Below are positions 4,894 through 22,380 of a DNA stretch of 22,816 nucleotides, piece after piece. The stretch spans positions 1-22,816 of the forward strand of contig CAYHBD010000045.1 in assembly GCA_964354805.1 (NCBI GenBank). Direction: 5' to 3'. The DNA is from an uncultured archaeon. GTDB taxonomy: Archaea; Iainarchaeota; Iainarchaeia; Iainarchaeales; GCA-2688035. The stretch's first letter is position 1. Each line of letters starts with the position of its first letter. The notes under the pieces were generated by a model. The model was not told the origin of the DNA, ran no database searches, and worked only from the letters and a program-made list of their open reading frames with translations. The position numbers and the translations under genes were made by a program.

Positions 4894-5040
4894 CCGCACC
4901 CCACACTTCCACTATTTCACTTTATAATATAAAAAAGTGCTTATGTATAATATGAATATGTAGTATATAAAAATGTTAGTGGTTATGCCCCGCGCGTAAT
5001 TTATTTGGAAAAGAAAGTTAATTTTGTTTATTGAATCGTT

Positions 5041-5053
5041 GCAGGGGGTAATA
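5041..5053 (+). repeat. 13-bp direct repeat, copy 2 (GCAGGGGGTAATA)
   Basis: Identical to 3655-3667. Confidence 0.8.
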
Positions 5054-5079
5054 TTTTTTGCAAACGCCCCCCCGGATTA

Positions 5080-5128
5080 ATTAAAAATTAAAGAAAATGT
5101 GAAAAGTTTTATTAAAAATTAAAGAAAA
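5080..5128 (+). repeat. AT-rich tandem duplication, 18-bp core with 31-bp period
   Basis: ATTAAAAATTAAAGAAAA at 5080-5097 and 5111-5128. Confidence 0.7.
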
Positions 5129-5254
5129 AGTTTTTTGAAAAGCTAGATTTTAAATTTTAAAATTAGAAAAATAATTTGAAAAAAGAAAAAAATTTTGCTT
5201 TGGGTTTGTTTTCTTCTGTGATTGTGGCTGGTTGGTTTGGGTAATTTTTTTGTT

Positions 5255-5551
5255 TTATCTTCGTCTGTACTTGTAATGCATTGGTTGTTGTTCCGGTTCA
5301 GGCTCTGCAGCAACTGGCTTGCTTGAAACAATCATTATATCCTTGACTGATTTCACGTTTCTGTATGGAATGCTTTTTTCGCTGATTATTTTTTTTGCTT
5401 CCTGCTTTGTCCTTGCTTTAAGCGCTTCGGTTGTTATTGTTTCAACCCTCCCTTTTTCAAGGTTTATAACCAAATCAAAAACCTTCCCCTTGTATTCCGC
5501 ATCTCCGGTGTAGATGTCCATGCCGAATAATTTTGAAAGTCTCATTGACAT
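5255..5551 (-). CDS. PRC-barrel domain protein
   Basis: RLSKLFGMDIYT..AEYKGKVFDLVINLEKGRV and IPYRNVKSVKDIMIV are typical of archaeal PRC barrels; GGAGGGTG RBS. Confidence 0.88.
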   Translation of the reverse strand: MSMRLSKLFGMDIYTGDAEYKGKVFDLVINLEKGRVETITTEALKARTKQEAKKIISEKSIPYRNVKSVKDIMIVSSKPVAAEPEPEQQPMHYKYRRR

Positions 5552-5795
5552 ATCGCACCCTCCTTTTATATTATATGCTTCCCCCTCAATTAAATCAGGG
5601 TGTTGTTAAAATTTTTTCTCTTTTCAACACACTGAATTTTTTTAGGTTCAGCTATTTTTGGCTATACAATTAGTTCATTTTAATATTTAAAGCTTTTGGT
5701 TTCCCCCTTTTCACCGAATACCTATACATAATGAATTTTTTGAGTAAAAATGGCTGGCTGGCGAGGCTATCCAGCAGGGCCACGCAGCACCCACC

Positions 5796-5826
5796 TTATA
5801 CATAACAGAAAGTTGGGGCTTAAAAC
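5796..5826. other. Candidate tyrosine-recombinase crossover site (dif/attI-like)
   Basis: TTATACATAAC-AGAAA-GTTGGGGCTTAAAAC, about 120 bp downstream of the xerA stop; related to 20217-20245. Confidence 0.5.
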
Positions 5827-5942
5827 ACGCCCTCCCCTTATATTTTGCCCTTAAATAGTGGAAGTGCAGAGCCGGCTGCTGCCCTGGCAATCATAGTTTC
5901 TCAAATTGGTTTTTTGCTCTTGCCCTTCTCTTGCCCCTACAA

Positions 5943-19982: not shown

Positions 19983-20096
19983 CTTCTACATAACCACAAT
20001 CTCGCCGATAGCAAAAAAGTGTGCTCCCTGCAGCAATTCAGCGACGGAAACAGCGCGATTGCAGTGATGGAAAGAGAGTAAAAGCGGGTTGCGGGA
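19983..20096 (+). repeat. Inter-gene repeated element, copy A (includes copy 2 of the 21-bp repeat at 20064-20084)
   Basis: CTACATAAC (19986), CAAAAAA, TGCTCCCTGC (20022) and GTAAAAG (20078) in the same order as in 22253-22380. Confidence 0.65.
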
Positions 20097-20216
20097 AAAA
20101 TAAGAAATGTGTGGCCCCAAAAGGTTTTTTTTAGCGTGCACCTCAAGGTACACTTAACCTCTTGGACTTACCCACAACTAATCAATAGCCACAGCAGGAT
20201 TTAAAATTGATGTTTT

Positions 20217-20245
20217 TTATACATAACGACAAGTTAAAGTTAAAC
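20217..20245. other. Candidate tyrosine-recombinase crossover site at the left border of the radical SAM/TcmP block
   Basis: TTATACATAAC-GACAA-GTTAAAGTTAAAC; same 11-bp arm and AAC-N5-GTT geometry as 5796-5826. Confidence 0.5.
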
Positions 20246-20342
20246 GGGTTTTTGGCAAAGCAGCGGAACAGTGCTCTCTTTCTGCGCTATTTAAATATCA
20301 GAAAAGTCATACTTTTTGTGTCTATAGTTGTAGGGGGAGACT

Positions 20343-21299
20343 ATGCGCGCAGGAGTTAAGTACAAAGAGTATGAGCTATTGGATGGAAGCATCAGGCCGT
20401 TGGTTGAAAAAGTAAAGGATGGTTCAATAATCACTCGCTTTGATAGGACGCCAACTCCACAAGATTCTCACGACGTGGTCTGCCCGCATTTTCTTGAGTT
20501 AAAGTGGGGTTATGGCTGCCCGTTCAATTGCGCTTGGTGTTTCTTGAAGGGAACGCTGCGCATGGTTAAAACAAAGACTGCTCCAGTTGCAAAGGGTTAT
20601 GAAAAAATTGAAGAGCACGTGAATTACTTTTTGCAAAACGATGGCGTTTCGGTAGAGTTACTCAATTCCGGCGAGTTGGCGGATTCGCTTATGACAGAGC
20701 ATTTAGGCAACCCTTTTTCAGAATTTATTGTTCCCTTGTTTGAAAAGCAAAATAAACACAAAGTGTTGCTTTGCACAAAATCTGTTAATGTTAAAAATTT
20801 GCTTAAAATTAAAGAGCACAATCAAACAATTGTCAGTTTTAGCTTAAATGCGCCGGCTGTAGCAAAAAGGTGGGAAAAAGCGCCAGCCCCCTTCGCAAGA
20901 ATTGAAGCGGGAAAAAAATTAGTTGAAAACGGTTATACTGTAAGGGCAAGAATTGACCCAATGGTTCCAATTGAAAACTGGCAAAAAGAGTATGCAGTGC
21001 TGCTTGACAAATTGTTTGAAAGCTTTGCGCCTGAAAGGATAACAATTGGCTCATTAAGGGGGCTTGCCAGCACAATCCGATGCTGTCCTGACAAAACATG
21101 GGCAAAATACCTCAACGAAAAATCAAACTGGGGCAAGAAAATAGCGCACAGCACACGAAAAGAAATGTACTTATTTGTCAAGGATTACTTGAAGGACAAC
21201 TTTGGATACAAGAACTTGGCGCTATGCAAGGAAACAGTTGAAATGTGGCAAGCGCTCGGAATGAACTATAAGGAAATAAAATGCAACTGCCTGATTTAA
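20343..21299 (+). CDS. Radical SAM protein of the spore photoproduct lyase-like family
   Basis: GYGCPFNCAWCFL (CxxxCxxC), NSGELADSL, LCTKS, VSFSLN, RIDPM, LCKE and terminal CNC; GGGGGAG RBS. Confidence 0.9.
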   Translation: MRAGVKYKEYELLDGSIRPLVEKVKDGSIITRFDRTPTPQDSHDVVCPHFLELKWGYGCPFNCAWCFLKGTLRMVKTKTAPVAKGYEKIEEHVNYFLQNDGVSVELLNSGELADSLMTEHLGNPFSEFIVPLFEKQNKHKVLLCTKSVNVKNLLKIKEHNQTIVSFSLNAPAVAKRWEKAPAPFARIEAGKKLVENGYTVRARIDPMVPIENWQKEYAVLLDKLFESFAPERITIGSLRGLASTIRCCPDKTWAKYLNEKSNWGKKIAHSTRKEMYLFVKDYLKDNFGYKNLALCKETVEMWQALGMNYKEIKCNCLI

Positions 21300-21316
21300 T
21301 GGGGGCTGGGCGTTAT

Positions 21317-22249
21317 ATGCAAGTACATCACCACACTAAAATAAAATTGAGGCTTTTGAGGCAATATCTGTACATCTGCTCAAAGGTGCATAAAACAAAA
21401 CCCCAAAATTTTTTCTATGTTGATACTCATGCGGGAGATGGGGTGGCTGAGTTTGATGATGGAAGTATTGAATTGGGGTCTGCCAAGATAGCGGCAGAAA
21501 ACAGCATAAACTTTTCCAAAATTTTTATTGAAGAGAATCCTGAAAACTATAAAAACTTGTGTTCAGAGCTCGCCCCTTTTGTTATGTCTAGAAGTAATAT
21601 TACTTCTAAAAATTGGAATATCAATGAAAAGATAGATGCCGTTTTAAACATGGTTCCTGAATATTATCATTCCTTTTTTTTCTTAGACCCTTACGGGCCC
21701 GGAGAACTCCCCTTTAGAACTTTGAAAAAGATACTTTTGCATCGGCACCAATATAAAGACGAGTCCAAGCGGATACCCGAGGTTTTGATAAATTTCCCTA
21801 TCAAGAGGATTAAGCAAAATGCAGGCAATTTAGAAAAATGCAGGGATTGCAGCAAAAAATTTGACCCAACAGATAAGCATTGTGTGCATTGTAGAAAAAT
21901 CGGCGAGCAGTTGTGTAAAATCAATGATGATTTCTTTGGGGGCACAGAATGGCAGGATATTTGGAGAGAAAGCCGTTTTGATAGCGTAGAATCCAGAGAA
22001 AAATTATTAGGGGCGTACCTAAATAAATTAAAGCCGTTCTATGAGTGGGCAGGCGGATTTCATTTTTATGTTACTTTAGTTGAAGAAATCAAGGCCAAAG
22101 CACCGCTGTATTATCTGATTTTCTGCACCTCTAATAAGCTTGGGAAGTCAACTTTTTCTGACTTAAAGAGAAATATTGAGAAATGGAAAAAAGAGGAATA
22201 CATTCGAGATTATTATAAGATTAGCATGCCGCTTTCAAAATGGCAATAA
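21317..22249 (+). CDS. tcmP: Three-Cys-motif partner protein (TcmP-like SAM-dependent methyltransferase fold) with a Cys-rich insertion
   Basis: HTKIKLRLLRQYL, YVDTHAGDG, GSAKIA, FFFLDPYG, EVLINFP, FFGGTEW and PLYYLIFCTSN; alternative start ATG 21299 overlaps the upstream stop. Confidence 0.85.
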   Translation: MQVHHHTKIKLRLLRQYLYICSKVHKTKPQNFFYVDTHAGDGVAEFDDGSIELGSAKIAAENSINFSKIFIEENPENYKNLCSELAPFVMSRSNITSKNWNINEKIDAVLNMVPEYYHSFFFLDPYGPGELPFRTLKKILLHRHQYKDESKRIPEVLINFPIKRIKQNAGNLEKCRDCSKKFDPTDKHCVHCRKIGEQLCKINDDFFGGTEWQDIWRESRFDSVESREKLLGAYLNKLKPFYEWAGGFHFYVTLVEEIKAKAPLYYLIFCTSNKLGKSTFSDLKRNIEKWKKEEYIRDYYKISMPLSKWQ

Positions 22250-22252
22250 TTG

Positions 22253-22380
22253 CTACATAACAAATTCCTTTTTCGGCCACCCTCAAAAAACGGTTTTTGT
22301 TGCTCCCTGCTAATGAACAGCTCGTTTTTCATAAGGCGCCAATCTTCTACTGAAAGGCGTAAAAGAGTTTTGGGGAGCAA
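22253..22380 (+). repeat. Inter-gene repeated element, copy B
   Basis: CTACATAAC (22253), CAAAAAA, TGCTCCCTGC (22301) and GAAAGGCGTAAAAGAGTTTTGG (22352); TTGCTCCC/GGGAGCAA inverted repeat. Confidence 0.6.

Follow-up and report, generated by a model that had tools for sequence, protein, structure and literature searches.

The KOPS word (GGGNAGGG) and other architecture-imparting sequences are over-represented asymmetric words that invert at the chromosome-unlinking site dif and become denser toward it; KOPS lies mostly inside genes and is read by the gamma domain of FtsK. In archaea lacking FtsK, skewed words oriented toward dif have been described under the name ASPS (Cortez et al. 2010, PMC2958812). 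In the same work the archaeal dif is defined as 11-bp arms around a 6-bp spacer, at a single intergenic place that is in some cases close to xerA, and conserved AT-rich flanks are reported around the dif of Thermococcales (PMC2958812). In the Tus-Ter system of Escherichia coli and the RTP-Ter system of Bacillus subtilis, opposed groups of asymmetric sites switch at dif or the terminus. Termination in Sulfolobus occurs by stochastic fork collision (PMC3020120), and boundary sequences flanking dif in Thermococcus kodakarensis are bound by TrmBL2 and stall Smc-ScpAB (PMC11840125). In the published literature searched, we found no archaeal fork trap, and the only archaeal polar words were the 4-nt ASPS. 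Here we analyse a 22,816-nt stretch of DNA from an uncultured archaeon of the Iainarchaeota (GenBank assembly GCA_964354805.1, contig CAYHBD010000045.1), hereafter the window, together with an 11-nt word that recurs in it, TTMTACATAAY.

The window is the entire contig C45 of a 1.38-Mb, 49-contig assembly (G000, the window's own genome). The closest xerA loci belong to metagenome-assembled genomes of Candidatus Iainarchaeum and to the complete genome 'archaeon GW2011_AR10' (AR10), whose chromosome was scanned whole; the comparison set comprised 31 related genomes, labelled G0xx. Genes were called by codon usage, in the window and genome-wide, families of the window genes were assigned with Pfam, and profile searches covered G000 (88.5% complete) and the complete AR10. 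We consider, with a probability of roughly three in four, that TTMTACATAAY is a polar, dif-converging word and protein site in Iainarchaeota.

Like KOPS and other architecture-imparting sequences, the word is over-represented and asymmetric, inverts at dif and is denser toward it. Unlike KOPS, it has a density about 10-fold higher between genes than within them, and FtsK was not found in G000 or AR10. Unlike both KOPS and ASPS, its convergent pair lies only about 100-230 nt from dif; moreover, ASPS are 4-mers with a statistical skew, whereas this 11-mer has a polarity of 28/28. With Tus-Ter and RTP-Ter it shares opposed asymmetric groups that switch at dif, a copy number in the low tens or below, a frequent location outside genes, a reach far along the arms, and a predicted protein binding. 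However, there are 25-60 copies rather than about 10, the innermost pair lies about 350 bp apart around dif, and no Tus or RTP homologue was found. As with the TrmBL2 boundaries of T. kodakarensis, sequences beside dif, and not dif itself, would organise the chromosome, with one factor serving tens of further loci and with dif in gene-poor DNA. For the TrmBL2 sites, however, no discrete word with a polarity has been described, and the SMC hinge was not found in G000 or AR10. Finally, the XDS of the Bacillus terminus are also short Xer-arm-like sites spread around the terminus that are not recombination substrates, but in Iainarchaeota the word shares no more than CATAA with the dif arms of the lineage itself, and its copies are genome-wide and strictly polar.

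Distribution and polarity of the word

A reading of the window made from its sequence alone had noted TACATAA(C) dispersed between genes and had proposed it as the binding arm of XerA. TACATAA occurs at 4941(-), 5725, 5799, 7487(-), 13001, 13493, 19987, 20220 and 22254, the coordinates given by the sequence-only reading being the starts of longer forms. These nine copies compare with 1.33 +/- 1.33 expected and a maximum of 6 in 100 dinucleotide shuffles of the window, and all nine are intergenic by our gene calls. The exact repeats that had been reported are also there: TTATACATAAC at 5796, 12998 and 20217, and (C)TTCTACATAAC at 13489/13490 and 19983/19984.

The enrichment extends to the whole genome. 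G000 contains 125 copies of TACATAA, 54 of them intergenic against 19 expected, and when counted against an order-3 Markov background, as the sequence-only reading had suggested, TACATAAC is present in 21 intergenic copies versus 1.8 expected, which places it among the most enriched intergenic 8-mers. In published literature, TACATAAC was found in primer sequences only. The consensus TT[AC]TACATAA[CT] was derived from the flanks of the genome-wide copies; the copies are preceded by an A-rich tract and followed by a T-rich one, and beyond about 11-13 nt they no longer resemble each other, their flanks being unrelated. The full 11-mer occurs 26 times in G000 and 28 times in AR10. Its pattern was matched in 30 of the 31 related genomes, typically with 20-38 copies, whereas the control word, the motif read backwards, gave 0-3. 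Thus, the word is a lineage-wide signal and not a unique dif or att site. It prefers divergent intergenic regions, the DNA least transcribed through (0.64 per kb versus 0.24 per kb in tandem ones).

The orientation of the copies follows the chromosome arms. In AR10, 41 of 44 T[AC]TACATAA sites between 187,483 and 963,874 are on the + strand, and 11 of 12 from 964,219 round to 55,719 are on the - strand. A model with two arms fits 52 of the 56 10-mers and 28/28 full 11-mers, so that every full copy points toward one locus. When two switch points were left free, one fell exactly at 963,874/964,219, the copies that flank dif, a fit that was not equalled in any of 300 strand shuffles. Once corrected for coding strand, the GC and TA skews flip sign, both of them within the 900-1,020 kb bins, around 964 kb; the asymmetric sites form two opposed groups around a point where skew and polarity converge. 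In an unbiased scan for polar words, the motif family came first by polarity ratio (CTACATAA 36:3, TTCTACATAA 21:0). Density rises from about 3 per 100 kb far away to 22 per 100 kb at distances of up to 25 kb from dif.

A switch from + to - was also found in G019:C2 (9 copies, then 6), G009:C2 (6, then 6) and G024:C38. Among the matches listed, neighbouring copies had the same orientation in 64 pairs and different orientations in 7, four of the latter at dif loci (hand count). Within the contigs of G000, 24 neighbour pairs agreed and 7 did not; for pairs more than 1 kb apart the numbers were 18 and 4 (p=0.004).

This polarity does not derive from gene strand. If each copy is compared with the strand of the gene nearest to it, 39 of the 56 AR10 sites fit, as against 52 for the arms. 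Only 59% of AR10 coding bases are co-oriented with the arms, which cannot produce a motif polarity of 28/28. Tandem intergenic regions of AR10 hold 11 copies co-oriented with the genes and 10 anti-oriented, and between 840 and 900 kb the genes are mostly on the - strand and the motif is 18+/4-.

Neighbouring copies are also phased on the helix. Same-orientation neighbours are spaced by 20-21, 31, 42, 51-54, 61-64, 74 or 82 nt (Rayleigh p~3e-9 at 10.4 bp, a value overstated by the many orthologous pairs), and inverted pairs are always 16 nt apart from start to start. Phased spacings together with fixed inverted pairs point to a protein that occupies a single face of the helix and in some cases binds as a dimer.

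The dif-like site at the convergence point

We scanned for inverted repeats 11-N-11 with arms ending in TAA or TTA. In G000 the candidate is C6:9097-9124, TCGCGGCATAA-TCGCAG-TTAAGCCGCGA, with an arm complementarity of 10/11 and a 6-bp spacer. The 28-mer is unique: the next best match in G000 reaches 20/28, and none lies within the window. It matches the published definition of the archaeal site (PMC2958812), and we regard it as a candidate dif. The AR10 candidate, at 964,001, has the same 11-6-11 layout (TTGCTGTATAA-TAGCAG-TTATACGGCAC, 9/11) and lies 14 kb from xerA. G019 carries a dif-like site at C2:223,628 (TTGACGTATAA-TGGTTA-TTATACGACAT, 9/11), and a weaker one is present in G009:C2 at the same offset from a convergent pair.

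In G000:C6 and AR10, convergent copies of TTCTACATAAC bracket the dif-like site, and the layout is the same in G019 and G009, which brings it to four genera. The copies lie about 100-230 nt from the site on each side and enclose an interval of about 350 bp; in G000:C6 the inverted pair is 372 nt apart (region C6:8977-9360). A blastp comparison at 1e-5 gave no protein genes flanking dif that are shared among the four genomes. Two further features of C6 were observed: a palindromic TTATGTA-N9-TACATAA about 590 nt upstream of the dif candidate and, at the right end of the contig, a 141-bp repeat common to the ends of C10 and C13.

No overlap was found between the ends of C6 and C45. Synteny nevertheless orients the window: its genes from 225 to 6926 correspond to AR10 977.8-984.6 kb in reversed order and its metallopeptidase gene to 970.4-970.8 kb, and the C6 genes correspond to 955.9-956.9 kb in forward order. 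Rising window coordinates therefore run toward dif, beyond the right end, and the five full window copies, as well as those at 5725 and 22254, point toward it. The position of the window on the xerA-side arm adjoining dif accounts for its four-fold excess of copies and for the location of all five full copies on the + strand. From the sequence comparison, the point where polarity converges probably holds dif, just beyond the window.

The motif itself is not a dif. As Xer core sites, the window copies have an arm complementarity of 4-8/11 and are not two-armed in the 11-6-11 manner. A Xer dif is a single copy at the skew inversion, and the full word is present 26 and 28 times in G000 and AR10; the single 28-mer that sits where the skews invert is found at another place. 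Of the link to the Xer/dif system made by the sequence-only reading, one part stands, since copies are kept by xerA and polarity flips at the dif-like site. The other part, in which the motif is a crossover site, does not.

The window and its genes

Two copies of the word lie between the stop codon of xerA (5943..6926, - strand), which encodes a tyrosine recombinase with an N-terminal SAM-like domain, and a PRC-barrel gene (5255..5551, - strand) that is its conserved neighbour in the lineage. The second of them is the full motif TTATACATAAC at 5796..5806 (+), antisense to both genes and directed toward dif; a TATACATAAT copy (5723..5732, +) stands 74 nt ahead of it in the same orientation, a spacing that fits the ~10.4-bp phasing. 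Their AR10 equivalents are at 978835/978897 of the chromosome. The sequence-only reading had asked for conservation downstream of xerA orthologues, and at least one copy is present in 13 of the 15 loci with readable downstream DNA. Relatives have one to three copies there, between the xerA stop and the PRC-barrel gene, always antisense to both and mostly 51-63 nt apart.

Farther along, the full motif TTATACATAAC at 12998..13008 (+) lies within a 1.3-kb gene-free stretch, with long T runs after it, and is followed by CTTCTACATAAC at 13489..13500 (+). A second full CTTCTACATAAC copy (19983..19994, +) is found 29 nt past the stop of the gene 19172-19957, and the full TTATACATAAC at 20217..20227 (+) is 116 nt upstream of a radical SAM gene. 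The TATA box of this gene, TATTTAAATA, about 40 nt upstream of the ATG, is distinct from the motif. The remaining copies have the core only. CTACATAAC (22253..22261, +, flank TGC) begins 4 nt past the stop of a TcmP-like gene. ATTATACATAAG (4941..4947, -) is all that is left of the palindrome TTATGTAT-N7-ATACATAAG, namely its right half; in most relatives this palindrome directly follows the TATA box of a 198-aa gene. A TACATAAC copy with the non-consensus flank TCCT (7486..7493, -) lies in a 1.2-kb gene-free stretch. The last two are the only copies on the - strand.

At its left end the window carries SerRS, a Trm56-like gene and TFE (codon-usage calls and Pfam), ahead of the 198-aa gene (4303..4899, -), which is conserved and lineage-specific and has the palindromic double site in its promoter. 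An Rfam scan of the window returned two intron-containing tRNA genes only, both missed by ARAGORN (31-158, 128 nt, - strand; 3199-3309, 111 nt, + strand). Past xerA there is a gene-poor region in which Pfam identified a TRAM protein, an HhH-GPD fragment, a lipoate ligase, a metallopeptidase, an OB-fold protein and GIY-YIG, ICMT and ParE genes; a GPR1/FUN34/YaaH-like membrane protein was assigned there from its sequence, with no Pfam scan. The HhH-GPD frame (9949-10431) matches profile positions 33-107 only and may be a truncated gene. By our own calls, 38% of the window is non-coding versus 15% genome-wide, and long gene-free stretches were seen at 6927-8120, 9353-9948 and 12691-13983. An alternative genetic code behind these gene-poor stretches was rejected, the standard code already giving 85% coverage by open frames. 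The right end (20343-22777) consists of the radical SAM gene (SPL-like, PF20903), the TcmP-like gene of 322 aa and a third open frame.

The TcmP-like gene was not found in any of 30 relatives and has only three distant homologues in a collection of 5.8 billion proteins. This indicates that the TcmP block is accessory, strain-specific DNA adjoining dif. Between dif and xerA there are 0.6 kb in G019, but 14 kb in AR10 and as much as 22 kb in G009; with this variation and a TcmP-like gene not found in the 30 relatives, the interval gathers accessory DNA.

Several side observations concern xerA and its surroundings. The xerA orthologue is the sole tyrosine recombinase of the complete AR10. In G000, a second one (435-aa frame, C10:30692-31153) has two TACATAA copies 62 nt apart (33232-33302) about 2 kb off, and may belong to an integrated element. 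In some relatives the xerA match ends near residue 279 (L017, 3768 onward; L018, 3702 onward; G026:C6:163704-164411) and the frame continues into Hint-/LAGLIDADG-like sequence; in G026 it stays open over 710 aa. From sequence, an intein may thus be present inside xerA, shortly before the region of the catalytic tyrosine.

An inverted pair AATAGTGGAAGTG(Y)GGGG flanks the PRC-barrel gene of the window (4899-4917, -, and 5853-5871, +). G000 has no further intergenic copy of this sequence; the pair is also found in AR10 (978,677- / 979,490+), and single copies occur in the examined stretches of G019 and G009. In the window, one copy directly adjoins the start of the 198-aa gene at its start codon. 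The second follows xerA closely at its 3' side, on the strand opposite to the gene, where no open frame starts; it could be a promoter for antisense transcription or a protein site. As the pair has the same orientation in all 15 relatives, we consider an invertible switch improbable. A replication origin at the xerA locus was considered on account of an ORB-like inverted pair AATAGTGGAAGTGYGGGG and an AT-rich stretch (4960-5250), and was rejected: the locus is 14 kb from the point where skew and polarity converge and is not at a divergence point.

Elsewhere in G000, another enriched intergenic word was seen, AAGCCTTGGGAA (CCTTGGGA: 62 copies versus 6 expected; e.g. C47:26130). Promoter-like elements with GTGGCAATACATAAACTTTATATGCCAC, each about 60 nt long and nearly identical to one another, occur at three places (C16:61945, C30:43033, C35:43655) and hold TACATAA within an inverted repeat GTGGCA/TGCCAC beside a TATA box, a separate context for the core word.

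Proposed explanation and alternatives

We propose that the motif would be the docking site of a sequence-specific DNA-binding protein that acts asymmetrically. Such a protein could form a one-way barrier, which forks or other DNA motors would pass when moving toward dif and which would hinder them when leaving; replication would then end in the ~350-bp interval containing dif. By analogy with Tus-Ter, this one-way barrier is the mechanism that we tentatively prefer, as a possibility short of even odds. An orienting signal for a translocase other than FtsK, by analogy with KOPS, comes next and is somewhat doubtful. The barrier is favoured over a scanning cue because the motif stays out of DNA that is transcribed, its copies stand in phased arrays, and dif is clamped between two of them in an interval of about 350 bp. 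In broader terms, it is conceivable, and no firmer than that, that Iainarchaeota own an orientation-dependent barrier or guide, similar to Tus-Ter or FtsK-KOPS and built from unrelated parts, which finishes replication and unlinking near dif.

Several observations weigh against considering the word as a polar protein site of this kind. In G000 and the complete AR10, FtsK (PF01580) gave no match above the cut-off, and neither the SMC hinge nor Tus and RTP (PF05472, PF02334) were found. G020, G022 and G030 hold 0-2 motif copies and yet retain xerA; of these, G020 consists of one 0.8-Mb contig, from which the word is missing. The second polarity switch of AR10, between 56 and 187 kb, is poorly defined and is not at the only orc1/cdc6 gene (840 kb); thus, orientation toward dif is established, and the link to replication direction comes from the skews only. 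The related genomes are kin, so that counts across them overstate independence, and with G000 in 49 contigs the polarity of the whole chromosome was demonstrated in relatives and not in G000 itself. Finally, a TACATAAC copy lies upstream of orc1/cdc6 in the sense orientation (AR10 839,622, 113 nt; G000:C9:149,422, ~250 nt), and such copies fixed at promoters, of cdc6 and of the 198-aa gene, together with the palindromic double sites, suggest an additional or alternative role for a transcription factor.

The 198-aa protein was considered as the reader of the motif; this is unsupported, the gene being also present in motif-poor genomes. Its model is confident (pLDDT 87) but has only a generic ferredoxin-like domain and a helical bundle. 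Structure searches returned nothing at E<=0.001 with Foldseek, a Z of 6.5 at best with VIA, and no hit in the Atlas.

The alternative that survives best, although we consider it unlikely, is that the word is a half-site for XerA itself, comparable to the XerD-only XDS of Bacillus, on which XerA monomers would organise terminus DNA and not recombine it. The motif does end in CATAA, as do the inner ends of the lineage's dif arms (GGCATAA, TGTATAA), and we take it to resemble the XerD arm of E. coli dif. Its copies are densest near dif and xerA, two to three being kept right after the gene, and XerA has no second tyrosine recombinase beside it in AR10; the XDS precedent is cited in PMC11840125. 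However, the outer 6 bp are unlike the dif arms (TTMTA versus a GC-rich TYGCNG), and those arms differ from genus to genus, whereas the motif is constant throughout the order. In addition, xerA is retained in the three genomes nearly devoid of copies, no window copy has a second arm above chance, and copies reach hundreds of kb from dif.

It is improbable, again, that the word is an element of transcription units (a terminator, an insulator or the operator of a regulon), its polarity being a by-product of the co-orientation of genes with replication. Besides the intergenic preference, the A-tract and T-tract flanks and the palindromic form placed right after the TATA box of the 198-aa gene, this explanation draws on a T5 run within 25 nt downstream of 37% of copies (18% of random intergenic positions), on a TATA-like box 10-35 nt upstream of 26% (versus 9%) and on tandem regions of G000, where copies are co-oriented with genes 20 to 8. 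The corresponding AR10 regions, at 11 to 10, do not show this bias; there the arms fit 93% of sites and gene strand 70%, and the 59% co-orientation of coding bases falls far from 28/28. Moreover, the conserved copies adjoining xerA are antisense to both neighbours. An archaeal TATA box has a fixed place about 26 nt ahead of the transcription start, in G000 equivalent to 30-39 nt ahead of start codons. Unlike it, the motif keeps no fixed distance to start codons: TTTAAATA lies 30-39 nt upstream of a start codon in 35 of 102 copies and TACATAA in 1 of 25, which disposes of the TATA variant named by the sequence-only reading as its own refutation. No RNA structure precedes the motif either, the 80 nt upstream of the nine copies folding like shuffled sequences (z -0.47 to +0.68), and on the same folds an H/ACA-type or other small RNA (ACA plus U run) was rejected.

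The sequence-only reading had itself considered site 5796 as the chromosomal dif or attI and 20217 as the junction at which an IMEX-like island with the radical SAM, TcmP and nuclease genes had integrated. We now regard this as highly improbable. The TcmP-like gene is indeed accessory, the dif-xerA interval, which varies from 0.6 kb in G019 to 14-22 kb in AR10 and G009, does gather lineage-specific DNA, and motif copies fall between gene modules. However, sites 5796 (core 5799) and 20217 (core 20220) have arm complementarities of 6/11 and 7/11, a random level (the 95th percentile of random window positions is 7); the sole dif-like 28-mer of G000, a far better and unique candidate, is on C6; and nothing marks a junction at 20217. 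Furthermore, G000 has 26 full copies, the copy at 22254 is inside the supposed island, and polar copies are found all round the AR10 chromosome, far from islands. The extension AAC-N5-GTT...TTAAA is present at 5796 and 20217 as described, but it is lacking in the orthologous copies adjoining xerA in relatives. With AAC-N5-GTT in two of nine copies, not kept in orthologues, and 5732-5812 folding at z -0.26, the comparison with integron simple sites (AAC/GTT) is not sustained.

Relics of mobile-element ends (terminal repeats of miniature inverted-repeat transposable elements or insertion sequences) can be set aside as scarcely credible: dispersed, exact 11-12-mers and the inverted C6 pair 372 nt apart would suit them, but likeness stops after 11-13 nt amid unrelated flanks, the C6 pair brackets the dif-like site in an arrangement kept in four genera, and perfect chromosome polarity is not expected from transposition.

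The polar word bears on how archaea without FtsK join their dif sites and confine XerA to dimer resolution, and on whether they set the place at which replication ends. Published work had described weakly skewed 4-mers, the ASPS, and unnamed sequences flanking dif; the word analysed here is a discrete, strictly polar 11-mer with a convergent pair around a conserved dif-like site, found order-wide. For annotation, it marks the place of dif and the arms of the chromosome when a DPANN assembly is fragmented. If the reading as a barrier or guide is true, the 11-mer would serve as bait for the first archaeal protein of such a kind, in cells without FtsK, SMC, Tus or RTP.

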